Below are positions 13,397-50,103 of a stretch of DNA of 64,000 nucleotides, piece by piece. The stretch is from NCBI RefSeq assembly GCF_988243305.1, contig NZ_OZ547136.1; one strand, 5' to 3'. A program made the position numbers and the translations under genes. The notes under the pieces were generated by a model, which did no database searches, had not been told where the DNA came from, and saw nothing but the letters and a program-made list of their open reading frames with translations. Each line of letters starts with the position of its first letter. Position 1 is the stretch's first letter.

Positions 13397-14851
13397 ATGA
13401 ATAATAAGGGCTCCGGTCTGACCCCAGCTCAGGCACTGGATAAACTCGACGCGCTGTATGAGCAATCTGTAGTTGCTTTACGCAACGCCATTGGCAACTA
13501 TATTACAAGTGGCGAATTACCTGATGAAAACGCCCGCAAACAAGGTCTTTTTGTCTATCCATCACTGACCGTAACTTGGGATGGTAGCACAACCAATCCC
13601 CCTAAAACGCGCGCATTTGGTCGTTTTACTCACGCAGGCAGCTACACCACCACGATTACTCGCCCTACTCTCTTTCGTTCGTATCTCAATGAACAACTTA
13701 CGTTGCTGTATCAGGATTATGGTGCGCATATCTCGGTGCAACCCTCGCAGCATGAAATCCCTTATCCTTATGTCATTGATGGCTCTGAATTGACACTTGA
13801 TCGCTCAATGAGCGCTGGGTTAACTCGCTATTTCCCGACAACAGAACTGGCGCAAATTGGCGATGAAACTGCAGACGGCATTTATCATCCAACTGAATTC
13901 TCCCCGCTATCGCATTTTGATGCGCGCCGCGTCGATTTTTCCCTCGCGCGGTTGCGCCATTATACCGGTACGCCAGTTGAACATTTTCAGCCGTTCGTCT
14001 TGTTTACCAACTACACACGTTATGTGGATGAATTCGTTCGTTGGGGATGCAGCCAGATCCTCGATCCTGATAGTCCCTACATTGCCCTTTCTTGTGCTGG
14101 CGGGAACTGGATCACCGCCGAAACCGAAGCGCCAGAAGAAGCCATTTCCGACCTTGCATGGAAAAAACACCAGATGCCCGCGTGGCATTTAATTACCGCC
14201 GATGGTCAGGGTATTACTCTGGTGAATATTGGCGTGGGACCGTCAAATGCTAAAACCATCTGCGATCATCTGGCAGTACTACGCCCGGATGTCTGGTTGA
14301 TGATTGGTCACTGTGGTGGCTTACGTGAAAGCCAGGCCATTGGCGATTATGTACTTGCACATGCTTATTTACGCGATGATCACGTTCTTGATGCGGTTCT
14401 GCCGCCCGATATTCCTATTCCAAGCATTGCTGAAGTGCAACGTGCGCTTTATGACGCTACCAAGTTAGTCAGCGGCAGGCCCGGTGAGGAAGTCAAACAG
14501 CGGCTGCGTACAGGTACTGTGGTAACCACAGATGACAGGAACTGGGAATTACGTTACTCAGCTTCTGCACTTCGTTTTAACTTAAGCCGGGCCGTGGCAA
14601 TTGATATGGAAAGTGCAACCATTGCCGCGCAAGGATATCGTTTCCGCGTGCCATACGGGACACTACTGTGTGTTTCAGATAAACCGTTGCATGGCGAGAT
14701 TAAACTTCCCGGCCAGGCTAACCGTTTTTATGAAGGCGCTATTTCCGAACACCTGCAAATTGGCATTCGGGCGATCGATTTGCTGCGCGCAGAAGGCGAC
14801 CGACTGCATTCACGTAAATTACGAACCTTTAATGAGCCGCCGTTCCGATAA
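13397..14851 (+). CDS. amn: AMP nucleosidase (484 aa)
   Basis: ATG at 13397 (MNNKGSGLTPAQALDKLD) gives 484 aa; track ORF from 13241 is an upstream in-frame extension. Confidence 0.85.
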   Translation: MNNKGSGLTPAQALDKLDALYEQSVVALRNAIGNYITSGELPDENARKQGLFVYPSLTVTWDGSTTNPPKTRAFGRFTHAGSYTTTITRPTLFRSYLNEQLTLLYQDYGAHISVQPSQHEIPYPYVIDGSELTLDRSMSAGLTRYFPTTELAQIGDETADGIYHPTEFSPLSHFDARRVDFSLARLRHYTGTPVEHFQPFVLFTNYTRYVDEFVRWGCSQILDPDSPYIALSCAGGNWITAETEAPEEAISDLAWKKHQMPAWHLITADGQGITLVNIGVGPSNAKTICDHLAVLRPDVWLMIGHCGGLRESQAIGDYVLAHAYLRDDHVLDAVLPPDIPIPSIAEVQRALYDATKLVSGRPGEEVKQRLRTGTVVTTDDRNWELRYSASALRFNLSRAVAIDMESATIAAQGYRFRVPYGTLLCVSDKPLHGEIKLPGQANRFYEGAISEHLQIGIRAIDLLRAEGDRLHSRKLRTFNEPPFR

Positions 14852-16364: not shown

Positions 16365-16440
16365 TGGCTCCTCTGACTGGACTCGAACCAGTGACATACG
16401 GATTAACAGTCCGCCGTTCTACCGACTGAACTACAGAGGA
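16365..16440 (-). tRNA. asnW: tRNA-Asn (GUU)
   Basis: Reverse complement of TCCTCTGTAGTTCAGTCGGTAGAACGGCGGACTGTTAATCCGTATGTCACTGGTTCGAGTCCAGTCAGAGGAGCCA; symbol assigned from gene order. Confidence 0.9.
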
Positions 16441-19353: not shown

Positions 19354-20271
19354 TTAGCTCACCAATTGCCACTGCCTTTTTTCCATCACTGGAGAACTCA
19401 TCACTGACATTAACAACTCTTTCACTGCCTGTGCCTGTGGTGATAAGTTCGCTCTGGCGGGTAAATTTAATGACAAAGAGAGACTCATGGAAGGTGTGGT
19501 AATGCGTGACATCCACCCGTTTACTGCGCCACATAACGAACGCGCGGCCGATTCGGGTAATACTGCAACGCCCATGCCGCTGGCAATCGCTGCGGTAAGC
19601 GTGGCAATAGACTCAATTTCACCAATGACTTTTGCCGTGAGTCGCCGTAGGGAAAACGCCTCATCAACACGAAGTCTAACAGCGCTGTAATCACTGGGGA
19701 GAAAGAGGTTCATTTGTGCAATAGCATTAACATCAACGCTTTGCCCCGGGCAATCTTGAGTTCCTACCAGGAAAAGATCTTCTTTCAGCAAAGCCTGACT
19801 GGATACCCCAGCCACAGGGGAATGCTCATAAATCACCGCCATATCGAGTTGGTGATTTATCAGTTTTTCGTTAAGCACTGCACCGCTATTTTCATGAAGA
19901 TAGATAACGATCTCCGGGAATTCAGCGCGAACCGCCTGTAATAAGGGCATGGTGATAGATGACGCAGCGGTTCCTGGCGCAAAGCCAATCGAGACTTGCC
20001 CCGATAATGCCTGACCAACGTTATGCACCGCCAGTTGGGCCTGCTCACACTGACGTAAAATGGCCCGCGCATGGGTATAGAGAATTTTTCCGGCGTCTGT
20101 TGGCGTAACGCCCCGTTTTGTGCGAATCAAAAGTTGTTGATTTAACTCACCTTCCAGTGTGGCAACCTGCTGGCTGAGCGCTGGTTGTGCGATATGCAAT
20201 ACTTCAGCAGCCTGAGTCAGGCTACCAATATCTACAATTTTTACGAAGTATTTCAGGCGTCTGAAGTTCAT
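19354..20271 (-). CDS. nac: Nitrogen assimilation control protein Nac (305 aa)
   Basis: ATG giving MNFRRLKYFVKIVDIGSLTQAAEVLHIAQPALSQQ; track ORF is a 10-codon upstream extension. Confidence 0.85.
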   Translation of the reverse strand: MNFRRLKYFVKIVDIGSLTQAAEVLHIAQPALSQQVATLEGELNQQLLIRTKRGVTPTDAGKILYTHARAILRQCEQAQLAVHNVGQALSGQVSIGFAPGTAASSITMPLLQAVRAEFPEIVIYLHENSGAVLNEKLINHQLDMAVIYEHSPVAGVSSQALLKEDLFLVGTQDCPGQSVDVNAIAQMNLFLPSDYSAVRLRVDEAFSLRRLTAKVIGEIESIATLTAAIASGMGVAVLPESAARSLCGAVNGWMSRITTPSMSLSLSLNLPARANLSPQAQAVKELLMSVMSSPVMEKRQWQLVS

Positions 20272-20596
20272 GTTGCCTCCGGTTTTTGAGAATCGGCCCA
20301 AGTGCCGCCATTACTTACAACCAGACTGCAAGATGCTTGCCAGTTTTATTTTGGCGTTGATGTACAAGCTAACCAACTGTCAAATAAGAGATTATGATAG
20401 ATTCGTCATTGGCTCTTTTCACCAGCAGTCGCGTTCCCCTGCCCTATAAAAGGAGGGTATGCACCACGATGGTTCATTACCAATAAGATTGAAATCTCAT
20501 CACTTTGTTGAAATTGGCAGCAAACAAACAAAAAAATGCATTTCACCCTTTGACATCACCATGCACTGCCATTAATATGCGCCCCGTTCACACGAT

Positions 20597-20672
20597 TCCT
20601 CTGTAGTTCAGTCGGTAGAACGGCGGACTGTTAATCCGTATGTCACTGGTTCGAGTCCAGTCAGAGGAGCCA
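20597..20672 (+). tRNA. asnV: tRNA-Asn (GUU)
   Basis: Third identical 76-nt tRNA-Asn copy. Confidence 0.9.
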
Positions 20673-20678
20673 AATTCA

Positions 20679-20706
20679 AAAAAGCCTGCTTTCTAGCAGG
20701 CTTTTT
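20679..20706. terminator. Hairpin terminator between asnV and ldtA
   Basis: AAAAAGCCTGCT-TTC-TAGCAGGCTTTTT. Confidence 0.5.
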
Positions 20707-20727
20707 GCTTTCTAATTACCAACGCTC

Positions 20728-21663
20728 TTAAAACATCTGTCTTGAACCAGAACTAATTTGCACAGGCATTCCCGATCGACGTTGCAACGCAGCATTTGCG
20801 CGATTCACATCAACTTCTTGCCCGTTGATAAACGCCCGCAAAGATGGGGTTACCGGCAATGGCACTTTTCGGTCAGACTCATATTCTGCACGATTGCGCG
20901 ACAGCGGCTCATGAACTTCCAGCCAGTTCGAGCCATCTGGTTCAGTGGTGTATTTTACTGGCTGGTCGATAATTTGCACACGCGTTCCAACAGGAACATT
21001 ATCAAACAGATATTTGATATCGTCATTGCGCAGACGAATACAGCCCTGACTTACCCGAAGTCCAATACCAAAATTGGCATTGGTACCGTGGATGGCATAC
21101 AACCTGCCAATATAAATCGCGTACAGCCCCATGGGATTATCGGGCCCCGCAGGAACAAATGCGGGCAAACTCTCCCCTCGTTTCGCATATTCGCGCCGAG
21201 TGTTCGGCGTTGGCGTCCAGGTTGGAGCTTCTTGTTTACGTTCAACGGTAGTCACCCAGTTACGCGGGGTTTCTCTCCCAGCCTGGCCGATACCAATAGG
21301 AAAGACTTCCACAGTATTACTGTCTGGCGGGTAGTAATAAAGACGCATCTCAGCGACGTTAACCACAATCCCTTTACGAAAAGTGGCGGGCAAAATCAGT
21401 TGCTGCGGAATGGTGAGTTGCGAGCCAGACTTCGGCAAGAAAACATCAGCGCCCGGATTCGCTTCCAGCATGTTACTTAACCCTTGCCCGTATTGTGCGG
21501 CAAAAGTCTCCAGCGGCTGGGTATTGTGATCAGGAACAGTTACAGTAAGCGACTGCCCCACCAAACGGCTACCCTCTGGAGGTAATGGATAAGTTACCGC
21601 CAGGCTAGTATGGCTGGCAAAAAGCAGAGCAAATGAGCAAAGAATATTTACACGACGCATCAT
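20728..21663 (-). CDS. ldtA: L,D-transpeptidase (ErfK/LdtA)
   Basis: Signal peptide plus YkuD-domain motif [20 protein letters not shown] (catalytic Cys). Confidence 0.85.
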
Positions 21664-21724
21664 GTCCCTTTCCTATGTCGCGAAAGCTATCCGTTAAGTA
21701 TAGCTTTTATCAGACTTTTCGTTT

Positions 21725-22804
21725 TTAACTGTTCAAATCAGAAGTCGTATTCCCCGGTAGAACAATATTACTGGCAGCAAGTTCGCCCATGTTGTTATAT
21801 ATCGCACAGGCAGCTTCGATGATGGGCATCGCCAGAGCTGCGCCACTCCCCTCACCTAAACGCATCTCCATATTGAGATAAGGCTCCAGCCCCAAATGCG
21901 ACAGCGCTATACGCGCCCCTTTTTCTGCCGACAGGTGAGAAGGAATGAGATACGGTTTGATTGCAGGAGACATCTGGCAGGCTGCGAGCGCAGCAGCATA
22001 AGAAAGAAATCCATCCAGCAACACGGGTAAACCGCAGGAAGCAGCGCCTAACATCACGCCAGCCATTCCGACCAAATCAAATCCCCCCACTTTTGCCAGA
22101 ACATCAACGCCATCCTGCGGATTTGGTTGATTCAACGTAATCGCCCGGCGCACAACATCAATTTTATTAGCCAGTTTATCTGTCGGCAGGTTTGCGCCAA
22201 TCCCAACCACTTCTTCAGGATCCCGGCCAGTGATTGTGCTGACTATTGCCGCTGCCGGTGTCGTGTTTGCCATCCCCAGTTCACCTACACCAAACAGCGT
22301 GACACCGTTTTTTGCCAGCTCCCGCGTATAACATATGACGTCCAAAAGCAACTTTTCAGCCTGACGGCGACTCATTGCCGGAGCTGAAGCAATATTGCCG
22401 CTACCTCGTGCGACACGCATGTTGATAAGCCCGGGGATAGGCTCAGCACTATCAATACCAACATCAACTACGTGGACGTTAGCGCCCGCTTGTGCTGCCA
22501 GCACACACACGCCGGTTGTTCCGCGGGTCATATTTTCAGCCTGAATGGCTGTCACTTCTTTTGGGGAAATAGCGACCCCTTCCTCCCAGACGCCGTGATC
22601 GGCACACATAACCAGTACCGCTTTTTTGCCCACATGCGGTATGCCATTCAACCCCGGCATTCCCGCCAGTTGTATGGCAAGCGCCTCCAGCCTTCCCAGG
22701 CTACCAACAGGTTTAAGTAACCCGTCAATATGCCGTTGTGCACGCGACATAGCGGCAGGATCGATAGCAGGGATCGTATTCAGTAAATCGGCAAGTGTTT
22801 GCAT
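21725..22804 (-). CDS. cobT: Nicotinate-nucleotide:dimethylbenzimidazole phosphoribosyltransferase CobT (359 aa)
   Basis: Length and sequence family; cobU-cobS-cobT operon order. Confidence 0.9.
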
Positions 22805-22815
22805 GTCACGTCTCT

Positions 22816-23559
22816 TTATAGCAGTGCCAGCAGGAAGACCAGTTCACCAGGCTCTATAGCAGCTCCCAGCGTATCGCCGGTTTGCCCGCCCAGCGTACGT
22901 TTGAGAAGCTGACCGAGGATGAAAATCGCCACCATCGTCACCACCATAGCAGCCACACCATGCATACCCGGCAATAATACGGCAGCAAAAATAGCGGCTA
23001 AGCCGAGTGTGACGCAGGTTTGTCGCCCATCAATTTTGCCAATGAACACATTGCCAAGCCCTTCTTCCCGGGCATAACGATGACGATACATCAATAATGC
23101 GGCAGTCCCGCGGCTGACCGCACATGCTGCCGCCAGCGATGCAAGGATCGGTTCGCCACGCAGAGCCAACTCGCTTAATACCAGAATCTTTGCCAGTACA
23201 ACAAAAATCAATGCCAGACCGCCATGGGTGCCTAAACGGCTATCACGCATGATTTCCAACATGCGATCGCGGCTACGTGCAGAAAATACGCCATCACAGG
23301 TATCGGCGAGGCCGTCCAGATGGAATCCCCCGGTCATCAGCGCCAGCACAAGTACGCTAAACAGTGCCGCCAGTGGTACGCCACACCATGCCTGCAGCAC
23401 CATGAAGACCAGCCCGCTAATCGCGCCAAGCAATAATCCAATTAAAGGAAAAGTAATAATACCGCGAGAATAATGCTCGAAATCCAGTCCCTGGGACCAG
23501 CGACGCGGTACAGGCAGACGCGTAATAAATGAGAGCATCGCCCAAAATAATTTACTCAT
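22816..23559 (-). CDS. cobS: Cobalamin 5'-phosphate synthase CobS (247 aa)
   Basis: ATG at MSKLFWAML overlaps cobU stop (ATGA); polytopic membrane protein. Confidence 0.85.
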
Positions 23560-24101
23560 TTGATTTTTACTCCAATACCCGAAACCACCAGCCATACTTC
23601 ATTTGCCGCAGCGGCCAGCTGCTGATTTACCCGCCCGGCAATATCACGAAAATGTCGTGCCAGACGACTCTCCGGCACAATCCCCATTCCCACTTCGTTA
23701 GTCACTAATACAACCTTTGCGGGGCAACGTTGGCAGGCAGCAATCAACGACTGAATCTCAGCATTAATCGCCTGTTCCATCGCCTGATAATCCCATTCAT
23801 CAGGGTCTTTATCGCCGCCATAATCAAACAACAGATTAGTCACCATTGTGGTAACGCATTCCAGCAACACAGCTTCATGCGGGTTAATGTCTGCATGAAT
23901 TAATTCATCAAGATGTTGCCAACGCTCCACCGTGCGCCAGTGCGCCGGACGGCCTTGCCGATGATGTTCTATCCGTGCAGCCATCTCGTCATCAAGGATT
24001 TGCGAGGTAGCGATATACAGAACCTGTGAAGAGTCCCCAATAAGCGCCTCTGCGTGGCGACTCTTCCCGCTCCGTGCGCCCCCCGTCACCAAAATCATCA
24101 T
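23556..24101 (-). CDS. cobU: Adenosylcobinamide kinase/guanylyltransferase CobU (181 aa)
   Basis: P-loop GGARSGKS; 181 aa. Confidence 0.9.
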
Positions 24102-25307
24102 ACCGACTCCTGATTCAAATGTATGATGGTATTCATTGAACAGAACAATGGATCCCCCACCGTTGCTGACCGCAAAACATTTACGCGATTAATACTGCGC
24201 GTAATATAATTAAAAATCCAGCATTCTCAATCCATTACGAAATAAGATGGCATTACGGAATAGCCAGACTTTCTCGTGTTAACGTCCGACAAAATGCGTC
24301 ATTGACAGCGGTTTCTGTGGATTGACACATTTCATTCAGATAATGAATTAATGCTACTGCCGGACCAACCAGCAAACGGGCATTGTGTTCTGAAATCCAG
24401 GCTATTGATTCAACGTCAGCGACAGATCTGCGCTGTAAAAGAACTTGTAAAACAACGCAATAGAATTATCCGGAATGGTGGCGACTATGCACTAGAACAC
24501 CACAATTTCGCTCTCTCGGTAAGGCACTGTCACAGCATTCAACAGAATGTGACTTGCCAGATTTATTAGCGCCACCAGATGTTTAACCGGGTAACCACGA
24601 CCCAGTCGGGGATATATTCCATCTTCTCGCTGACATCATCAAGAATAAAAAGGTTTATCACACTCAGAGCAACGTTCTTCAGCAGGCGGGATAATTCTTC
24701 AACATTTAGAAGATGTGTTATTAAAGGCATACAAACTGGACGTATTGTATTTTCTTTTGGTGGTTGACCTAAGGTAGCAGTTTATCCTGATGCGCTGAGA
24801 TTTCTGTAATATCTACGTCAACATTCTCCTCGAATAGAAAATGCAGCCCCGGCAAGTGATTCACATTTTTTAACAAAACGTTGTTAGCGTGCCATTTTCA
24901 GAAGCTCTCCAAGAAAGCGAATTCTTTTCTCAAATTCTGCATTCTCAGACACAGCTTTCTACTCCATGGCAATGGCCCAAATACGAAGTTGCTCAGGATC
25001 ATTAGTGGTGCTGAGAAGTTAAATAACCATGCGGAGTACCACTCGTCATCACGTATTTATATATCATGAAGCTATTGTTGTGTTTTGTACATCAGTAGAT
25101 ATATTCTGATATACTCCTTTTGCTAGACATAACCTTTCACCTGCTTGCAAAGCTTCTGTGTTCTGACATTGCCAAATTGTTGCAATTCTGTATCCAGCCT
25201 TCTTTCAGTCATAGCTTCGGGCCGCGATAAGACTCACTGATCTGACCCTGATTCCTCTTGCAGACTTTATAGACCATTTAAAATGCAGTTTCGGTAATGA
25301 CTCCAAC

Positions 25308-25811
25308 TTATTGATAGTGTTTTATGTTCAGATAATGCCCGATGACTTTGTCATGCAGCTCCACCGATTTTGAGAACGACAGCGACTTCCGTCCCAGCCG
25401 TGCCAGGTGCTGCCTCAGATTCAGGTTATGCCGCTCAATTCGCTGCGTATATCGCTTGCTGATTACGTGCAGCTTTCCCTTCAGGCGGGATTCATACAGC
25501 GGCCAGCCATCCGTCATCCATATCACCACGTCAAAGGGTGACAGCAGGCTCATAAGACGCCCCAGCGTCGCCATAGTGCGTTCACCGAATACGTGCGCAA
25601 CAACCGTCTTCCGGAGACTGTCATACGCGTAAAACAGCCAGCGCTGGCGCGATTTAGCCCCGACATAGCCCCACTGTTCGTCCATTTCCGCGCAGACGAT
25701 GACGTCACTGCCCGGCTGTATGCGCGAGGTTACCGACTGCGGCCTGAGTTTTTTAAGTGACGTAAAATCGTGTTGAGGCCAACGCCCATAATGCGGGCAG
25801 TTACCCGGCAT
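25308..25811 (-). CDS. insB: IS1 InsB (made as InsAB' by -1 frameshift)
   Basis: 167-aa IS1 transposase frame overlapping insA 3' end. Confidence 0.85.
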
Positions 25812-26005
25812 CCAACGCCATTCATGGCCATATCAATGATTTTCTGGTGCGTACCGGGTTGAGAAGCGGTGTAAGTGAACTGCAGTTGCCATGTTTTACG
25901 GCAGTGAGAGCAGAGATAGCGCTGATGTCCGGCGGTGCTTTTGCCGTTACGCACCACCCCGTCAGTAGCTGAACAGGAGGGACAGCTGATAGAAACAGAA
26001 GCCAC
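25730..26005 (-). CDS. insA: IS1 InsA (91 aa)
   Basis: [42 protein letters not shown]. Confidence 0.9.
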
Positions 26006-26577
26006 TGGAGCACCTCAAAAACACCATCATACACTAAATCAGTAAGTTGGCAGCATCACCTGCAGTTTCTGCAGGTCAACGTCTGACCATCATTGTCATC
26101 ACTCTGGCCATTAGAGTAACCTTCTGCATTCATCCTTTTGTAAAAAGTTTATATCAGTATCAGCAATTAACCGGACCTGATACTGATATGAGTCTTACCG
26201 CATATACGGTTAATTTCAGCAATTAATTACATTATCCACGCCAAAGTATTTGTCATCACAATGATGGTACCTTCTTTCAGACACCATTTTTTCAACTCCG
26301 TTTTCCACGGACCGCACTCTTATGTCAAGAGTGCGGTCCGTGGATACAACCAGAGACCGACTGACACGAGTCAGAGGAAACGACGGATATGTTCAGTCGT
26401 AAAATATCTATCAAAAAACATGATTAAGGTCAAAAATGTTTGATATTTACAATTTATGAAGATGACAATAATTATAGACACATGAGAACATAAATGAAAA
26501 TAATTATCATTACAGCAATCTGAATCGCCACGGGTTTAACAGACACCTCAGAGTCATTTAAGATGGCTTAAAGAGAG

Positions 26578-26871
26578 GTGCCCATGAGCGGTAAGCGTTA
26601 TCCCGAAGAGTTTAAAACTGAAGCAGTCAAACAGGTTGTTGATCGCGGTTATTCTGTTGCCAGCGTTGCAACACGTCTCGATATCACCACCCACAGCCTT
26701 TATGCCTGGATAAAGAAGTACGGTCCGGATTCTTCCACTAATAAAGAACAGTCAGATGCTCAGGCCGAGATCCGCCGTCTCCAGAAAGAGCTGAAACGGG
26801 TTACCGACGAACGGGACATATTAAAAAAAGCCGCGCTCTTGATGTCAGACTCCCTGAACAGTTCTCGATAA
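26578..26871 (+). CDS. IS3-family transposase OrfA (HTH)
   Basis: [32 protein letters not shown]...; probable ATG at 26584. Confidence 0.8.
26824..26830 (+). promoter_or_regulatory. Programmed -1 ribosomal frameshift heptamer A-AAA-AAG (orfA to orfB)
   Basis: ATTAAAAAAAGCCGCGCTC at the orfA/orfB overlap, as in IS911. Confidence 0.55.
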
Positions 26872-26897
26872 TCGGGAAACTCAGGGCGCGTTATCCT

Positions 26898-27258
26898 GTG
26901 GCCACTCTCTGCCATGTGTTCGGGGTCCATCGCAGCAGCTACAAATACTGGAAAAACCGTCCTGAAAAGCCAGACGGCAGACGGGCTGTATTACGCAGCC
27001 AGGTACTTGAACTACATGGCATCAGCCACGGCTCTGCCGGAGCAAGAAGCATCGCCACAATGGCAACCCAGAGAGACTACCAGATGGGGCGCTGGCTTGC
27101 TGGCAGACTCATGAAAGAGCTGGGGCTGGTCAGCTGTCAGCAGCCGACTTACCGGTATAAACGTGGTGGTCATGAACATGTTGCTATCCCTAACTACCTT
27201 GAACGGCAGTTCGCCGTGACCGAGCCAAATCAGGTGTGGTGCGGTGATGTGACCTATA
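26898..27258 (+). pseudogene. IS3-family transposase OrfB, 5' exon (interrupted by intron)
   Basis: ...[27 protein letters not shown] then frame diverges into intron. Confidence 0.7.
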
Positions 27259-29986
<2,728 letters not shown>

Positions 29987-30249
29987 CTCGGTGGCCAGTT
30001 TTTGTTGACCACTTCACATCGCCATCCGCAAGGTAACTGTAGAAGTGTCTTAAGAGAGTGCATTGCGTTGCCCATAACTTAAAACAGCTTAGATCCTTGT
30101 TCGCCAGAAAGTTTCATCCATTTTCTTCCACCCAGGTTGCGGAAGAACCACTTTTCATCCGTCGTTGACAGATGTGAAGTATGCGGGAGAAAAAGTGAAT
30201 ATCTAACTGTAATAACTCAGACCGGTACGAGTACTCGGAACGTCTACAA

Positions 30250-30768
30250 TCATTCAGGGCAAAGTGCTAAAATTTCTCTATCCCGGGATGCCCCTACCAA
30301 CGCAGCACTCCCGGAGATATCATTACAGCTCTGCAACTGATTTCCGCGACTGAACCGCTCAGTTCCTATCCTTCCAGTTGCCTTCCTGCAGCCCCCCTCC
30401 CTGCTGTATACCCCGGTACCACAACGCGGGCAGCACTTTTCTCCTTCATAATCTTCGTCACACATCACACAAAACCACTTTCTCACCTTCACCGTATAAT
30501 CCGGAACCGTCATACCCTGCAGATGCAAACGACGGGCCTCTTTCTCTGCCGGGTCAAGCCAGGTGCATCGCAGCAGGATTTTCTCAGCGACAGTCATCTG
30601 GTCATGTTCAAACCACGGTGGTTGTCCGTCATTGCCCCGCTGAAGTGTTAACGGGCATCCACAGGACACACAGCACAAAACGTCCTGGCGGTTGTGCTTC
30701 GCTGCTTCTTTCGCCGTAACAAAATGGCCTTTGCTGTCATTCGCCATATAACAGTTCAGAATTCGCAT
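30250..30768 (-). CDS. Cys-rich hypothetical protein A (172 aa from ATG at 30768), paralog of B
   Basis: AGGAGG RBS 5 nt before ATG (MRILNCYMANDSKGHF); motifs CCVSCGC...PWFEH...FCVMCDEDYEGEKCCPRCG; ATG overlaps stop of B (ATGCGAATTCTGA). Confidence 0.45.
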   Translation of the reverse strand: MRILNCYMANDSKGHFVTAKEAAKHNRQDVLCCVSCGCPLTLQRGNDGQPPWFEHDQMTVAEKILLRCTWLDPAEKEARRLHLQGMTVPDYTVKVRKWFCVMCDEDYEGEKCCPRCGTGVYSREGGCRKATGRIGTERFSRGNQLQSCNDISGSAALVGASRDREILALCPE

Positions 30769-31163
30769 ATTTCCTCCTGAGTTGTCCGGGGAATACTGAA
30801 TCCTCCGGTCTGGCAGTGTGTGCAGTACCGCTCCCCATAATAATCGTGGTGACATTGTCTGCAGTGCCAGCTGGCTTTACGCACCACGGGTAAGGCATCC
30901 GGTACGAATTGCTGCAGACGTTTAATCAACTGTATTTCTCTGCGCTCCGGCCTGACATAAGGGCACTGTTGACCGTGCTCTGTCAGCCTGTCGTCAGTGT
31001 GTTCAAACCAGGGAAGTTCAGTGTCGTATTGCGGATGGTATCTGAGTGCACTGCCACACAAGTGGCAGGTGTAGTTAGCATAAGGTGCGGCCTGTGCAGT
31101 ACGGGCGCCCGTCAGACGTCCGTTGCCATCAAGAGCGATAAAGGATTTTGCGTACATAGTCAT
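30756..31163 (-). CDS. Cys-rich hypothetical protein B (135 aa), putative zinc-ribbon protein
   Basis: GAGGA RBS; motifs CHLCGS...PWFEH...WHCRQCHHDYYGERYCTHCQTG; stop overlaps start of downstream paralog. Confidence 0.45.
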   Translation of the reverse strand: MTMYAKSFIALDGNGRLTGARTAQAAPYANYTCHLCGSALRYHPQYDTELPWFEHTDDRLTEHGQQCPYVRPERREIQLIKRLQQFVPDALPVVRKASWHCRQCHHDYYGERYCTHCQTGGFSIPRTTQEEICEF

Positions 31164-31416
31164 ATTCCTCAGCCGCCAGACGACACGCAGGCAACAGCCG
31201 TCCCGGTACGGGCAGCGTGGTCAGGGTGTGAATGGCGGTTCAGTTAAAATCTGGACTGGAGTTTGGGTAAAGCAGGCTGGTTGCTGTTACAGCACTGTGG
31301 TTGTCACACAATGGAACACTGACGTAAAAAACAGTCAGTGGGCGAGTGGATACATCGTTGCCGCCAGACAACAACCCATACTTTTGGTTTGCCGGATATT
31401 GGCGCGCCAGTCGTGC

Positions 31417-31986
31417 TCAACTCCGGCTACAGCCAAAATTGCGCTCACCGGTGCAGTGAGCTTTGGTATGTTCCTTCGCCAGATAGTCAGCACGTTCCAG
31501 CACCTGCTGAAAGCCAGTGTCATCATCGCGTTCCAGCCACACCGCCGGCCAGGCCGGAAAATGCACCAGCGTGGCATGGCACCCGACATCCACTCCCAGG
31601 GCACTGCACCACGCCTGTTTAATCATCCCGGCCAGTGATCCCGGAGCACGGTAATCACCGGCACGACACCAGGTATCCCGGTTAACCAGCAGCATCAGGT
31701 GATAGTGTTTTTTACCTTTGCACTCCCCAAACTCCCGGGCCCAGACGTAATGCAGGGTGGTGGGATGCACGCGTTTACCTTCCCGATGCTTACGTTTCTG
31801 GTAAGCGTCGATTCGGGCTTTCAGGGCATTGATGAAGCGGGATATCACAGCTGCGTCCGTTGCTGCCGGTACATCCGGGAAACGCAGGTCAACCCGCAAT
31901 GCCGTCAGGCGGGGATGAACATTCAGTGCGTGCCGCACCGTCTCACGAATACGTTGCTGCCAGAAGGGGTTGTATTTGTAGGTCAT
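31417..31986 (-). CDS. YfjJ/YagK-like protein (inovirus Gp2-type replication-protein family)
   Basis: MTYKYNPFWQQRIRETVRHALNVHPRLTALRVDLRFPD...; GGAGA RBS before this ATG; track ORF starts at an upstream GTG. Confidence 0.55.
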   Translation of the reverse strand: MTYKYNPFWQQRIRETVRHALNVHPRLTALRVDLRFPDVPAATDAAVISRFINALKARIDAYQKRKHREGKRVHPTTLHYVWAREFGECKGKKHYHLMLLVNRDTWCRAGDYRAPGSLAGMIKQAWCSALGVDVGCHATLVHFPAWPAVWLERDDDTGFQQVLERADYLAKEHTKAHCTGERNFGCSRS

Positions 31987-32184
31987 GGTTAAATCTCCGT
32001 ATGGTTCATACGGAATAGCCACGTCGTAAAAAATGCGCAGAGTCCCTGAAGTGACCTCCGGCAGGACACTGTCTCAGGCACTCTGTGATACCCCAACTAT
32101 CGTCTCCGGACTGACGGTTGAATTTTCAGCGTTGTTTTTTTAATGTAAAAAACCGGTTACGGGTAAGGCTGTGAGGAGGGAGTT

Positions 32185-32382
32185 ATGGTGATACGCAAAA
32201 AGAAGTGCAGGGACTGTGGAAACGCGATTACTCATAATACATGTTGCCCGTATTGTGGTTCTGTCGACCCCTTCGGCTATTACCGGAATACAGACCGTAT
32301 CGTTACCATACTGCTGGCACTGATTATTGTGGTCCTGCTGACTACTGTCAGCGTCAGTGTGTATATACTGTGTAGCTGGTGA
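32185..32382 (+). CDS. Small zinc-ribbon membrane protein (65 aa)
   Basis: Strong AGGAGG RBS; CxxC-N11-CxxC followed by one hydrophobic helix. Confidence 0.4.
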   Translation: MVIRKKKCRDCGNAITHNTCCPYCGSVDPFGYYRNTDRIVTILLALIIVVLLTTVSVSVYILCSW

Positions 32383-33704
32383 GATAACGGTTCATGTATC
32401 CCCTGAGCTGACAGTGTACCGGGTATATTAAGCGTAACCGACAGGTTCTCCTTCATACCATATTAAATTTTTCCAGGTATTGCCGCTGCCTTATTTCGTC
32501 CCATACAGGAAAACTCGTCTGGGTTTCTGACAAATACGCGAAACTCACAGCCCCTCAATATCAACCACACGCTGTAAGCCGGTAATACCTGAAAATCAGC
32601 CCATTACCGCCCACGCCTCCGGCACCATTCCCTTTTGATTTCGAATTCTTTGTTGTCGCTATACCGCTTAACGTTCCCGGTATTATCCTGGTTCCCGACA
32701 ACAGGAACATATTCAGCTTTTAATAACCTGAGAAGAGCCAATAAGAATCACAAAGCGGATAACACCTGGTGCGATGCAGTTGTGATTACCGAACGCTCAG
32801 ATGACATATTTCCAGACTGAAGCGGGAACACGATCGTAAAGCTTGTTCATTGTCAGTTCTGCCAGCCAGTGATCAACCACAGAGTTGAAGGCTTCCAGTT
32901 CCGCAGAGGTAAGTTTATAACGCGTGTGGGAAATCACTTTTTCCAGCGTCTCCCGGGATGAACAACGACGGAACTGCTTTGGTTTTAACTTCCATTAGCC
33001 TCTCATCACTTTATGCTGCAATTAACGTGATACTGTCAGCATACCGCCAGACTGGCATTCTGGTACCCACCCCAAACTCATTACTCCCGAGCCACCACTT
33101 AACCGGTCTCTCAGACTGTCACTCACCAGGTCGGATATGTTTACCGCTCAGACGGATGCTTAATGCACTCTGTTCACGTACATTGCAGATACGTTTTATA
33201 TACGCGGGTTATACGCCAGCTATCAGGGATAGCGCAGTCTGTTGCTACTGCGTTCTCATCATGCCCACTGATCACACTCACCGTGTTTATTTCACATATA
33301 TGAACTCATGTATTTGATCTCATGTGTTTGATCTCTCTTATATATTTATAATACCAATCAGACAGTCTTATCCCATCGGTGATACCTGTCGCCTGCCCAC
33401 CGGACACGGTCTGCCCCATCGTAACCGCCCCGTAAATAACTCTGCAATTATCAGAACGCCAGTTTTCCCCTCTTCCTCACGAAAATCATCCCTTCTTTAT
33501 CGCGCGCGCGTGCGGAAGCATCGTTTCGTAACAACCACCCGGCATACCGGTACGGCTCAACCACCGTAACCTCCCCGTTTATCTCCTGGCGGTCACATTC
33601 CCGATTATTTTTTACGTTTCTCCCCGGTTGTTATGCCGGTGAAGGTGGTGCGTTGTTTTCATGACCACACCGGCTGGTTTAACAACATCCGGAGGAACAT
33701 TCTC

Positions 33705-33911
33705 ATGCTCACCCCAGTTTCACTGATGGATGGCCAGATGGTCGACATGGCATTTATCACTCAACTGACCGGCCTGACCGATAAGTGGTTTTACAAACTC
33801 ATCAAGGATGGTGACTTTCCTGCGCCCATCAAAATGGGCCGCAGCTCCCGATGGCTGAAAAGCGAAGTGGAAGCCTGGCTGCAGGCGCGTATTGCACAGT
33901 CCCGTCCGTAA
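33705..33911 (+). CDS. alpA: AlpA-family transcriptional regulator (about 68 aa)
   Basis: ...ITQLTGLTDKWFYKLIKDGDFPAPIKMGRSSRWLKSEVEAWLQAR (AlpA/MerR-like HTH). Confidence 0.6.
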   Translation: MLTPVSLMDGQMVDMAFITQLTGLTDKWFYKLIKDGDFPAPIKMGRSSRWLKSEVEAWLQARIAQSRP

Positions 33912-33991
33912 TTCTTAACCGTTCATCTGCAACAGACGCAGTCTCCGGCCTGCCGGCGGCGTTCTGCTGCCTGTTATCCCCCGTGAGGAAT

Positions 33992-34600
33992 ATGAAAATG
34001 AAACCACAGTATCAGACCCGTTACGAGCTGCTCCACGAAAGCTACCAGAAATGGCTGACCGGCTTCACCCGGCACGCCGTATCCTGGGGCGTGTGTCATC
34101 CGAATATCTACTACTTCCATAATCTGACGCCCGGGTGGGTGTCATTCAATGGTGAAAAACCGGAGATTGCCATCGTACCCCAGAGTCTGCACCGGCTGAT
34201 TTATGGTCCGGACAAACGGACCACGCCGCCCCTGGATGATGATCTGATAGTGAATTTATGCACCAGTGAACATCTGCTGGTTCATCATCCGATGCTGGAA
34301 GGCATTCTCCTGTCTGAATGTGAACGTCTGAGGCAGCGTTCGCTGGCAAATAAACTGATCATCCTCTTCCGTCAGTTTGGTGGCACGGAGTTGCGCCTCA
34401 AACTGGTCTGGCTTTGCTGGCTTGATTTAATGACCGGAAACTGCCTTGACGACTGGACGGAGAATCTGAAACGGAAATCAGAAAAAGAGCTGGAGGAATG
34501 GATCATCAACCGTCAGAAGCAGAGCGCAGCACTGACGGATCTGATGGATCAGTACGTGCTCCTGGCATACCGCACAACGGTTGACGATAAGCGCACCTGA
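33992..34600 (+). CDS. Hypothetical protein (202 aa)
   Basis: GAGGAA RBS before ATG (MKMKPQYQTRYELLHESYQKWL); no family recognised. Confidence 0.4.
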   Translation: MKMKPQYQTRYELLHESYQKWLTGFTRHAVSWGVCHPNIYYFHNLTPGWVSFNGEKPEIAIVPQSLHRLIYGPDKRTTPPLDDDLIVNLCTSEHLLVHHPMLEGILLSECERLRQRSLANKLIILFRQFGGTELRLKLVWLCWLDLMTGNCLDDWTENLKRKSEKELEEWIINRQKQSAALTDLMDQYVLLAYRTTVDDKRT

Positions 34601-34921
34601 TGCCAGTTGTTTCAGGGAAGCTGGTATCCGGGCAGGGTGCCAGGGCTGACTGAACGGCCTGTCTGCCTGCCGTTTCGCTCTCCGTGCGTTCTGTCACACG
34701 CTGCACCTGAACGCCGGACTGCGGGCACGCAGACAGGAAAGTCGCAGGCTGGAACTTCTGACCGGCGGGTATCAGTTATATGCCTGTTGATTCATCACCA
34801 CCACGCAGCTCCTGAGCTTTAGTTCATCACCGATATTCATACATCTGAATATCGGTGATGAAATCCCCATAATAATCAATCATCTAAGTCTGAAGCATAA
34901 TGGAGAAAAACTGCTCACCGG

Positions 34922-45435: not shown

Positions 45436-45534
45436 ACGTCATTCATTTCACCCATCAGGCCGCGTCTTCTCCGGGAGACGTGGCTTTTTCATTTATTACA
45501 CCAGTAAATCTTAACCACCGATAAGGAGCAAATT

Positions 45535-46353
45535 ATGCGACTAGCCAGTCGTTTTGGTTATGCGAACCAGATACGCCGTGACCGTCCGCTGACACACGAA
45601 GAACTGATGCACTATGTGCCGGGGATTTTCGGGGAAGATAAACACACGTCCCGAAGCCAGAACTATACGTACATCCCCACCATCACCGTACTGGAAAGCC
45701 TGCAGCGGGAAGGCTTTCAGCCATTCTTCGCCTGCCAGACCCGTGTGCGCGACCCGGGCCGCCGGGGATACACAAAACACATGCTGCGTCTGCGGCGGGC
45801 CGGAGAGATAAACGGAGAACATGTCCCTGAAATTATTCTGCTCAACTCTCATGACGGTACCTCCAGCTACCAGATGCTGCCGGGGTACTTCAGGTTCGTC
45901 TGCCAGAACGGCTGCGTCTGTGGTCAGTCTCTGGGGGAAGTACGTGTTCCGCACCGGGGAAATGTGGTGGACAGAGTCATTGAAGGGGCTTACGAGGTGG
46001 TGGGCGTGTTTGACCGGATAGAGGAGAAGCGTGATGCCATGCAGTCGCTGGTCCTGCCGCCACCGGCACGCCAGGCGCTGGCACAGGCGGCGCTGACTTA
46101 CCGTTATGGTGACGAACATCAGCCCGTCACCACCGCCGACATTCTGACACCACGACGCCGGGAGGATTACGGTAAGGACCTGTGGAGTGCTTATCAGACC
46201 ATCCAGGAGAATATGCTGAAAGGCGGGATTTCCGGGCGCAGTGCCAGAGGAAAACGTATCCATACCCGGGCCATTCACAGCATTGATACCGACATTAAGC
46301 TCAACCGCGCATTGTGGGTGATGGCAGAAACGATGCTGGAGAGCCTGCGCTGA
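45535..46353 (+). CDS. DUF932-family protein (YfjQ/YafZ-like), 272 aa
   Basis: Conserved position upstream of the antirestriction gene in CP4-type islands. Confidence 0.5.
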   Translation: MRLASRFGYANQIRRDRPLTHEELMHYVPGIFGEDKHTSRSQNYTYIPTITVLESLQREGFQPFFACQTRVRDPGRRGYTKHMLRLRRAGEINGEHVPEIILLNSHDGTSSYQMLPGYFRFVCQNGCVCGQSLGEVRVPHRGNVVDRVIEGAYEVVGVFDRIEEKRDAMQSLVLPPPARQALAQAALTYRYGDEHQPVTTADILTPRRREDYGKDLWSAYQTIQENMLKGGISGRSARGKRIHTRAIHSIDTDIKLNRALWVMAETMLESLR

Positions 46354-46434
46354 TGCCGTTTCCCTGAGTGAGGGAATCATTCAGCTTTCGTTCCTGAAAA
46401 ACACACATTTATTTGTTATTTAAGGAGTTATCTC

Positions 46435-46914
46435 ATGAAGACCGTTTCTCAGAATACCCCCACAATTTATTCAGCTACAACACCAGAGAATAATCCGCCT
46501 CAGTTGGTTGCCAGCCTCGTCCCTGATGAACAGCGCATCAGCTTCTGGCCGCAGCATTTTGGCCTCATTCCACAGTGGGTGACCCTGGAGCCCCGTGTTT
46601 TCGGCTGGATGGACCGTCTGTGCGAAGACTACTGCGGGGGTATCTGGAATCTGTACACTCTGAACAACGGCGGGGCATTTATGGCCCCCGAACCGGATGA
46701 CGATGATGACGAAACATGGGTACTGTTCAATGCCATGAACGGCAACCGCGCTGAAATGAGCCCGGAAGCCGCCGGCATTGCTGCCTGTCTGATGACGTAC
46801 AGTCATCACGCCTGTCGTACGGAGTGTTATGCCATGACGGTCCACTATTACCGTCTGCGGGATTACGCCCTGCAGCATCCGGAATGCAGCGCCATTATGC
46901 GCATCATCGACTGA
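46435..46914 (+). CDS. Antirestriction protein (ArdB/KlcA family; YfjX/YafX-like)
   Basis: Acidic stretch PEPDDDDDETW; size ~159 aa; followed immediately by RadC-like gene. Confidence 0.65.
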   Translation: MKTVSQNTPTIYSATTPENNPPQLVASLVPDEQRISFWPQHFGLIPQWVTLEPRVFGWMDRLCEDYCGGIWNLYTLNNGGAFMAPEPDDDDDETWVLFNAMNGNRAEMSPEAAGIAACLMTYSHHACRTECYAMTVHYYRLRDYALQHPECSAIMRIID

Positions 46915-47406
46915 ATGGAGGCAGGGACAATGCAGCAGCTTTCCTTTCTGCCCGGAGAAATGACGCCCGGCGAGCGCAGTCTCATTCTGCGGGCTCTGAA
47001 AACCCTGGACCGCCATCTTCATGAACCCGGTGTGGCCTTCACCTCCACCCGTGCGGCACGGGAATGGCTGATTCTGAACATGGCGGGACTGGAGCGTGAA
47101 GAGTTCCGGGTGCTGTATCTGAATAACCAGAATCAGTTGATTGCCGGTGAAACCCTCTTCACCGGCACCATCAACCGCACGGAAGTCCATCCCCGGGAAG
47201 TGATTAAACGCGCCCTGTACCACAATGCCGCTGCCGTGGTGCTGGCGCACAATCACCCGTCCGGTGAAGTCACACCCAGTAAGGCAGACCGGCTTATCAC
47301 CGAACGTCTGGTACAGGCACTGGGTCTGGTGGATATCCGGGTGCCGGACCATCTGATAGTCGGTGGCAACCAGGTTTTCTCCTTTGCCGAACATGGTCTG
47401 CTTTAA
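46915..47406 (+). CDS. yeeS: RadC-like JAB/MPN-domain protein
   Basis: JAMM motif VVLAHNHPSGEVTPSKAD; start overlaps preceding stop. Confidence 0.7.
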   Translation: MEAGTMQQLSFLPGEMTPGERSLILRALKTLDRHLHEPGVAFTSTRAAREWLILNMAGLEREEFRVLYLNNQNQLIAGETLFTGTINRTEVHPREVIKRALYHNAAAVVLAHNHPSGEVTPSKADRLITERLVQALGLVDIRVPDHLIVGGNQVFSFAEHGLL

Positions 47407-47468
47407 CCCGTCACAACCACATCACACCTGTTTTCACTTTTATCTTCTGTCTTCAGAGGTATCCCATT

Positions 47469-47690
47469 ATGAAAATTATCACCCGTGGTGAAGCCATGCG
47501 TATTCACCAACAACATCCGACATCCCGTCTTTTCCCGTTCTGTACCGGCAAATACCGCTGGCACGGCAGCACTGAAGCGTATACCGGTCGTGAAGTGCAG
47601 GATATTCCCGGTGTGCTGGCCGTGTTTGCTGAACGTCGTAAGGACAGTTTTGGCCCGTATGTCCGGCTGATGAGCGTCACCCTGAACTGA
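47469..47690 (+). CDS. yeeT: YeeT-family protein (DUF987), 73 aa
   Basis: MKIITRGEAMRIHQQHPTSRLFPFCTGKYRWHGS...; precedes cbeA. Confidence 0.6.
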   Translation: MKIITRGEAMRIHQQHPTSRLFPFCTGKYRWHGSTEAYTGREVQDIPGVLAVFAERRKDSFGPYVRLMSVTLN

Positions 47691-47852
47691 TGTTCCGTCA
47701 CCCGGAAAACGAGTACGACTGGCTGAGCTCAGACGCCGCTGTGGATGAGGCCCTGCTCATAAACGAATACACCTTTACCGAAGGCGGTCTGCGCGCCGGC
47801 TGACCTGTCATCGTTAAACCATTCTTAACCGATTTTCTGTGAGGATTTTATC

Positions 47853-48221
47853 GTGTCAGACGCACTCTCCGGGATAACTCATCCCGACGACAATCACGAC
47901 CGCCCCTGGTGGGGGCTTCCCTGCACAGTGAGGCCCTGTTTCGGGGCACGTCTGGTGCAGGAGGGTAACCGCCTGCATTACCTTGCCGACCGCGCCGGTA
48001 TCAGAGGCCTGTTCAGCGATGCAGATGCGTACCACCTGGACCAGGCCTTTCCGCTGCTGATGAAACAACTGGAACTCATGCTCACCAGCGGTGAACTGAA
48101 TCCCCGCCATCAGCATACCGTCACGCTGTATGCAAAAGGTCTGACCTGCAAAGCTGACACTCTCGGTAGCGGTGGTTACGTTTATCTGGCTGTTTATCCG
48201 ACGCCCGAAACGAAAAAGTAA
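47853..48221 (+). CDS. cbeA: Type IV antitoxin CbeA (YeeU), 122 aa
   Basis: [49 protein letters not shown]. Confidence 0.8.
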
Positions 48222-48310
48222 ACCACCGGAATAACCTTCTGCTCCGGCCTGGTGCTTTCACCACGCCACTTTTCCATTTTTCATCTCTGCATATCAGGAA
48301 AACCTTCAGT

Positions 48311-48685
48311 ATGAAAACATTACCCGATACACACGTACGGGAGGCATCGAGCTGCCCGTCTCCCGTCACCATCTGGCAGACTCTGCTCTCCCGACTACTG
48401 GGCCAGCATTACGGCCTTACACTGAATGACACACCGTTCGCCGATGAACGTGTGATTGAGCAGCATATTGAGGCAGGCATTTCACTGTGTGATGCGGTGA
48501 ACTTTCTCGTGGAAAAATACGCGCTGGTGCGTACCGACCAGCCGGGATTCAGCGCCTGTACCCGCTCTCAGTTAATAAACAGTATTGATATCCTCCGGGC
48601 ACGCCGGGCAACCGGCCTGATGACCCGCGACAATTACAGAACGGTAAATAACATTACCCTGGGTAAGTATCCGGAGGCGAAATGA
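48311..48685 (+). CDS. cbtA: Type IV toxin CbtA (YeeV), 124 aa
   Basis: [49 protein letters not shown]. Confidence 0.8.
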
Positions 48686-48876
48686 TGACACTGGAAGCCG
48701 ACAGCGTTAACGTACAGGCGCTGGATATGGGGCACATTGTCGTTGACATTGATGGTGTTAATATCACTGAACTGATTAATAAGGCCGCTGAAAACGGTTA
48801 TTCACTCCGCGTGGTGGATGACCGTGACTCTACCGAAACACCGGCAACTTATGCCAGCCCTCACCAGTTGCTGTAA
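48682..48876 (+). CDS. yeeW: YeeW-like small protein (64 aa)
   Basis: Start overlaps cbtA stop; conserved position after toxin gene. Confidence 0.5.
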
Positions 48877-49316
48877 GACAATGCAGTGATACAGGGTATA
48901 GTGCCATTAACCACAGAAACAGCACTGTTGTCCTGTATTAAGCAGGCAAGAGAAGATGTCCTTACCCTGCGCCATCTGCAGCTTCTGCACCAGAACCGGT
49001 GAATCTCACTCAACAGGCTTCATTTCTCCTGACGCCAGCCTGAATACAGCTGGCGTTTTCATTTATAAACAGAAAGGAAAACCGATAATAATGGAATGGA
49101 CGCCCCGACCATGAAGCAACGGTAGGATATTACTGATAAACCTTCCAGTGGAGGTGCGTTATGGCCGTTTTAACGATTAGCATTGACCTGACAAAAAATG
49201 AATTCCAAATCCACGGTCTGGGTAGGAACAGAAAAATCTAAGCTCAGAAAACGGATTAAAGTAAGCGTCAACGGAGCACCGTATTGACGCTTATTTATTG
49301 GTGAGAACTACGTTCC

Positions 49317-49673
49317 ATGGCAGGAGTTCGTCAACACGGTTGGAGGGCCATTCCGGCAGTATGCTCAGAATATGGCGCAGATACGCTTCCGGATCGATAC
49401 CGTTCAGACGGCAGGTGCCTGCTTTTCTGGCAACAAGCAGGAATCTCAGCGCTGAAGCAGGAATTAGAGGTAAAAACGCCCTACCGGGCCATGAATCACC
49501 CGGTCATTGGAGTAGTAACCAAAGCAGATTTAGCCAGCATGGAACAAATATCTTTGGTGAAAAGTTGGTTACGGGAAGCTGGAGCGCACAACGTGTTAGT
49601 AACCAGTGCAGTTAATAACAATGGAGTTACAGAACTTTTTGCCTTGCTGCATACAGAAGAAGGCTGTTGTTAA
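49317..49673 (+). pseudogene. yoeF: EutP/PduV-family GTPase C-terminal fragment (yoeF-like remnant)
   Basis: ...VIGVVTKADLASMEQISLVKSWLREAGAHNVLVTSAVNNNGVTELFALL with no P-loop N-terminus. Confidence 0.5.
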
Positions 49674-49773
49674 TTTCGATTGGTTCTCGGATGAGAATGA
49701 TGACGGTGATACACAGATAAGAATCAATGAGCAATGAGGGTTGCCGGGCAACCCTCATTGAATAAAACGGGAA

Positions 49774-50103
49774 TTACTTCGCTTCGCCGTTTTTCATTTC
49801 GCCCATAGCTTTCAGCTTTTTGGAGATATCGCGGCGTTCTTTGGAGAGCTCGGCATTTTTGATGATGTAATCGTCAACGCGATCTTCATAGTCACCTTTC
49901 ATGCTGGCGATGATGCCCTGGATTGCTTCAACGCTCATCCCCGGCTTGATGTAATCGCTCAGGTTGTCCAGCAGCAGGACGCGCTTCTGGTTGTCACGGA
50001 TCTTTTTCTCAACGTCCTGAATTTCACGTTGCAGTTTGTTCTTACGACGGAACAGACGAACAAATTCCAGTACGTCCTGGAATGAAGGCTTGGTAGTTTC
50101 CAT
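49774..50103 (-). CDS. yeeX: UPF0265/DUF496 protein YeeX (109 aa)
   Basis: ATG at [30 protein letters not shown]; track ORF has upstream extension. Confidence 0.8.

Follow-up and report, generated by a model that had tools for sequence, protein, structure and literature searches.

A complete IS1 flanked by a 9-bp target-site duplication in decayed intergenic DNA next to cobU in Escherichia coli

Introduction

The window analyzed in this work, a 64-kb stretch (64,000 nucleotides) of Escherichia coli DNA from contig NZ_OZ547136.1 of assembly GCF_988243305.1, contains a copy of the insertion sequence IS1 between cobU and a CP4-44-like island. Its presence there raises two questions: whether the element arrived by a simple transposition event or marks the junction of a rearrangement, and whether the insertion had any consequence for the sequences around it. 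IS1 is defined by a length of 768 bp, imperfect inverted repeats of around 30 bp, the insA and insB genes and a target duplication of 8 or 9 bp; in addition, an A6C motif leads to IS1 frameshifting, and the promoter of the element partly overlaps its left inverted repeat, IRL (PMC12428005).

Results

The structure of the element and its immediate borders was studied in the window. As listed below, a complete IS1 was located on the minus strand, with a copy of the same 9-mer at each side.

25293..26060, minus strand: complete IS1 of 768 bp, an IS1A-type variant with the change A68V in InsA relative to the IS1A of K-12
26038..26060, minus strand: IRL, the left terminal inverted repeat in the orientation of the element, 23 nt, GGTGATGCTGCCAACTTACTGAT, overlapping a promoter-like site
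25293..25315, minus strand: IRR, the right terminal inverted repeat in the orientation of the element, 23 nt
25730..26005, minus strand: insA, from the open reading frame list and its translation, encoding the repressor and DNA-binding protein of 91 aa, with a GTG start
25308..25811, minus strand: insB' reading frame, from the open reading frame list, expressed only as the InsAB' fusion after a -1 frameshift
26005..25308, minus strand: coding sequence of the InsAB' fusion, 232 aa, with a translation uninterrupted by stops
25748..25754, minus strand: AAAAAAC (A6C) programmed -1 frameshift motif, intact, at IS1 positions 307-313
25284..25292, no strand: left copy of the 9-bp target-site duplication, TGCAGTTTC, read from the sequence
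26061..26069, no strand: right copy of the 9-bp target-site duplication, TGCAGTTTC, read from the sequence

The ends of the element in the window are GGTAATGACTCCAACTTATTGAT at one side and ATCAGTAAGTTGGCAGCATCACC at the other. When the arms of the inverted repeat detected by the repeat finder were compared, 18 of the 23 positions matched between IRL and IRR, in such a way that the repeat is imperfect (GGTGATG... in one arm and GGTAATG... in the other). A promoter-like site of the minus strand, CTGCCA-16-TATGAT, was found at 26053-26026, within IRL. The InsAB' fusion scored 241.3 bits (E = 8e-72) against the NCBIfam equivalog model NF033558.1 (transpos_IS1), for which the cutoff is 100. The length, the inverted repeats, the reading frames with their A6C motif, the family model, the target duplication and the near-identity to the reference all place the element within IS1, and its determinants for transposition are all intact, as judged from the sequence. 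No second IS1 sequence was found in the 64-kb window, the copy at 25293-26060 being the sole one.

The comparison with the IS1A of K-12 MG1655 (19796-20563) showed 766 identical bases out of 768, the two mismatches being those of IS1 positions 258 and 262. Of these substitutions, one changes residue 68 of InsA from Ala to Val, and the same change is carried into InsAB'. The copies IS1A and IS1E of K-12, considered as IS1 "consensus" copies, share with the element of the window the length of 768 bp, the ends, the insA/insB' layout and the A6C motif, whereas they differ from it in these two substitutions and in their chromosomal location. Closer still are the copies that bear the annotation "IS1-like element IS1A family" on many plasmids and chromosomes of E. 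coli (e.g., NZ_CP022731.1 and NZ_CP032992.1), which are 100% identical over the 768 bp and differ from the copy of the window solely in their insertion site. Of the 5,426 complete E. coli genomes, 4,970 contain IS1, with a median of 11 locations per genome, and because identical copies are found everywhere, the donor copy is not identifiable.

The original prediction proposed that a perfect 9-bp duplication flanks the 768-bp element, and this was borne out by the position of the two copies of TGCAGTTTC with respect to the IS1. Reading along the window, the order at the junctions is ...CCATTTAAAA TGCAGTTTC / GGTAATGACTCCAACTTATTGAT ... ATCAGTAAGTTGGCAGCATCACC / TGCAGTTTC TGCAGGTCAA..., so both 9-mers directly abut the element. 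The chance of a match in nine of nine bases at two fixed positions is 4^-9, around 4e-6. No further TGCAGTTTC was found on the plus strand of the 64-kb window, and the minus strand has one, at 13865. The duplication alone cannot tell a direct simple insertion from the formation of a cointegrate that was later resolved.

The state of the site before the insertion was investigated with a query of 1,078 nt made of the left flank, one TGCAGTTTC and the right flank, which was compared with the 5,426 complete E. coli genomes. This empty-site query matched at 100% identity, over its full length and in one alignment piece, in five genomes (JE86-ST05, JE86-ST02, OW1E2, B1-56 and AST81), in dozens more at 99.6-99.9%, and in 2,721 of the 5,426 genomes at a coverage of at least 80%. 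The empty site is thus found in B1-56, which is the closest relative regarding the island (99.9% identity over the adjoining 19.9 kb). In the blastn comparison with JE86-ST05, positions 20649-25292 of the window aligned with 21217-25859 of the homologous locus, and positions 26061-38510 with 25851-38301. The flanks are therefore colinear over 4.6 kb on the left and 12.4 kb on the right, and the two intervals of JE86-ST05 share exactly 9 bp. Such colinearity with a 9-bp overlap is what a simple insertion leaves behind when neither a deletion nor an inversion has occurred next to it. The proposal that a simple transposition took place here, not followed by an IS-mediated deletion, had been linked to the expectation that IS1-free alleles contain a single TGCAGTTTC at this position. 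A single copy is what the empty-site genomes have, and both the single-piece matches at 100% and the 9-bp overlap with JE86-ST05 support the proposal.

We also searched for the occupied site, using as query the IS1 with 400 bp of flank at each side, which would match over its full length and in one piece any genome with the same occupancy. None of the 5,426 complete RefSeq E. coli genomes carries an IS1 at exactly the same site. This collection is evidently devoid of the genome from which the window comes, and "strain-specific" means here absent from the collection. In that sense the insertion is strain-specific, as no identically occupied genome was found among the 5,426, and for this reason it is probably recent.

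The nature of the DNA that received the element was then considered. The features that delimit it are the following.

23556-24101, minus strand: cobU, with its start at 24101
~24405-24593: IS4-family remnant, located just beyond the cbiP remnant and cobU
24594..26520, no strand: non-coding target stretch (IS1 excluded), the region that in other alleles lies upstream of a TonB-dependent receptor gene and that is orphaned here
26521..30016, plus strand: mosaic, partly IS911-like remnant of the IS3 family, split by a group II intron and starting with TGAATCGCC...

The target stretch comprises ~1.9 kb without any annotated feature, with the IS4-family remnant on one side and the IS3-family remnant on the other, and the GC content around the insertion site is 39-41%, compared with 50.5% for the window. 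No annotated feature was found at the insertion site in the empty-site genomes. A "hypothetical protein" that seemed to lie under the empty site in some of them was discarded, as it corresponds to an ORF of 54 aa around 550 bp to the left. An Rfam scan of positions 22000-32000 (E <= 0.1) gave a single match, the group II intron domain at 29442-29528, and none where the IS1 is inserted. The insertion of IS1 interrupts no coding sequence.

In alleles that bear an intact TonB-dependent receptor gene, such as that of AVS0247, the homology to the window ends at 26520, 30 bp before the ATG of the receptor. The yoeA-like receptor gene has thus been lost from the strain, and the IS1 sits in the orphaned regulatory DNA of this gene, around 460 bp upstream. 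A cluster of Fur-box-like sequences, with 14-15 of 19 positions matching GATAATGATAATCATTATC, was detected at 26458-26514 and accounts for four of the seven such matches in the window; the segment 26458-26520 would seem to be an iron-regulated promoter region left without its gene. Two further structures were observed in this part of the stretch. A perfect hairpin at 26304-26344 is formed by a stem of 18 bp (TCCACGGACCGCACTCTT / AAGAGTGCGGTCCGTGGA) and a loop of 5 nt, with no T-tract on either strand, and nested inverted repeats occupy 26086-26268, with arms of 17 nt at 26086 and 26252 and arms of 13 nt at 26151 and 26177. In strain DX6 the homology to the window breaks at 26337, within this hairpin and beside an IS3-family pseudogene.

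On the other side of the insertion, the IS3-family element starts at 26521, 460 bp from the end of the IS1, in good agreement with the ~450 bp estimated at first. Its description as "IS911-like" stood only in part. It is correct for positions ~26831-27258 and 29529-30016, which are 94-98% identical to copies of the IS911/ISEc52 family, but not for the left 314 nt (26521-26834), which match a different transposase fragment, from another member of the IS3 family; furthermore, a group II intron divides the element. Of 2,270 bp (27259-29528, GTGTG...CTAC), this intron interrupts the IS911-like orfB at ...GACCTATA|TCTGGACGGG..., encodes ltrA at ~27930-29438 and contains a domain V/VI with a match of 64.9 bits to RF00029 at 29442-29528. 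The gene order is cobU, the cbiP remnant, the IS4 remnant, the IS1, the IS3-family remnants with the group II intron, and then the CP4-44-like island, which carries Ag43, yeeS, yeeT and cbtA beyond the intron-split element. From cobU to the CP4-44-like island, this order confirms that, as proposed, ISs cluster at the border of the island nearest to cobU.

Regarding the surrounding region, the identity with JE86-ST05 drops from 99.8-99.9% to 96.6-96.9% over positions 38770-49852 of the window, from the Ag43 gene onwards, and that with B1-56 holds at 99.9% to at least 46000. This pattern suggests recombinational mosaicism within the island. Three tRNA-Asn genes were also located, at 16365 (minus strand), 18189 (plus strand) and 20597 (plus strand); the segment 16365-20676, bounded by the outer two, is inverted with respect to JE86-ST05. 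At a tRNA-Asn, this last strain has in addition an island of 13.5 kb with an integrase, which is absent from the window.

The same spacer has received IS1 in other strains. Six of them (SHP24, AVS0247, EcPF7, DX6, E14 and SCPM-O-B-12142) contain independent insertions in the same AT-rich non-coding stretch of ~1.5 kb. As in the window, these are flanked by 9-bp duplications (8-bp in AVS0247), whereas their positions are different, some of the elements are divergent variants with 94-96% identity, and both orientations occur in the spacer. The duplicated insertions of other strains, in coordinates equivalent to those of the window, are the following.

24709: IS1 with the duplication GAAGATGTG
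24757: IS1 with the duplication TTGGTGGTT
24904: IS1 with the duplication GCTCTCCAA
24931: IS1 with the duplication CAAATTCT, of 8 bp
25114: IS1 with the duplication CTCCTTTTG
25263: IS1 with the duplication GACTTTATA

The identity of the IS1 variants in the spacer of other strains to the copy of the window ranges from 94% to 99.7%. Moreover, one-sided IS1 junctions without duplication were detected at the window-equivalent positions 24974, 25072, 25077 and 26180, and in these four loci the right flank consists of unrelated DNA or of DNA from deep in the island (e.g., beside cbtA or a DUF932 gene). To judge from these flanks, the one-sided junctions indicate IS1-associated deletions or rearrangements that would have removed parts of the CP4-like island. 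Altogether, the IS1 copies of this spacer occupy no fewer than 10 distinct sites in ~1.5 kb; the genomes with such a copy number at least 39, and both orientations are represented.

Discussion

Our main conclusion, to which we assign a probability of about 0.96, is that an intact IS1 inserted by transposition into the AT-rich, non-coding DNA that separates the cobUST operon from the CP4-44-like island, and that no rearrangement came after. The chemistry of IS1 transposition is established, and from it we infer the course of events at this site. A rare -1 ribosomal frameshift at AAAAAAC would produce the InsAB' transposase, which would bind IRL and IRR and join the ends of the IS1 to staggered target cuts 9 bp apart, and the repair of the two single-stranded gaps would generate the direct repeats of TGCAGTTTC. 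As the element entered already decayed DNA, where annotation is missing, its insertion was most likely selectively neutral.

Other explanations were weighed against this one. The 9-mers could be residual or coincide by chance, the IS1 marking in fact the junction of a rearrangement produced by IS1-mediated deletion, by inversion or by recombination between IS1 copies, and strains YZ22MPE54, MSI001, LT2-3 and PSS-11 actually have an IS1 here without duplication and with a different right-hand context. However, in the empty-site genomes the flanks are contiguous and hold exactly one 9-mer, the small chance of coincidence calculated above also argues against it, and we regard a rearrangement junction as refuted by the empty-site alignment, with a negligible probability. 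A second alternative is that transposition took place in another strain, the cobU-island segment having then been acquired from it with the insertion already in place, either by horizontal transfer or by homologous recombination. In agreement with this, the region is mosaic, with the drop in identity to JE86-ST05 beyond 38770 and with a closest relative that differs between segments. Nevertheless, with none of the 5,426 genomes carrying the insertion no donor allele is known, and an empty site on an identical flanking haplotype, as expected in close relatives if the IS1 was inserted in this lineage, is already seen in part with B1-56 and JE86-ST05, so that we consider this transfer unlikely; in any case, it would affect only the place where the transposition occurred and not the nature of the feature.

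A simple insertion could still have had a regulatory effect. The cbiP remnant and the IS4 remnant stand between the IS1 and cobU, and many strains tolerate an IS1 here, at varied positions and in both orientations, in what looks like neutral accumulation. It is consequently very improbable that the element alters the expression of cobUST, be it by read-through, by polarity or by the disruption of a silenced AT-rich region, even if the target is AT-rich and the IS1, located on the minus strand like cobU and 1.2 kb upstream of it, is transcribed in the direction of cobUST. In favor of such an effect, IS1 insertions that activate or inactivate genes are on record (PMC12428005).

The simple insertion that we favor is an ordinary, textbook case of IS1 in decayed intergenic DNA and poses no new question for biology. 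With it, the decayed DNA that joins cobUST to the CP4-44-like island has gained a further IS, and the lineage has a clean, strain-specific marker by which it could be typed or dated. Later deletions or inversions mediated by IS1, comparable to the one-sided junctions of other strains, could also start from this intact copy.

The accumulation of IS1 in this spacer could be taken as a preference of the element. The AT-rich, orphaned region with its Fur-box-like sequences might be a preferred landing pad, with insertions clustering through bent or nucleoid-protein-bound DNA and not by neutral tolerance alone, an idea that we find rather doubtful. With a median of 11 IS1 per genome of ~5 Mb, a census span of ~3 kb and ~3,900 genomes with the segment, a uniform density would give ~26 occupied genomes versus the at least 39 observed, a rough estimate, uncorrected for clonal relatedness, and with such a small excess the claim of a hot spot was dropped. 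A bias in orientation was also discarded. The first 11 insertions mapped all had the orientation of the window, an artefact of a search that joins pieces on one strand only; with the IS1 flipped in the query, 27 genomes with the opposite orientation were found, compared with 12 with the same orientation.
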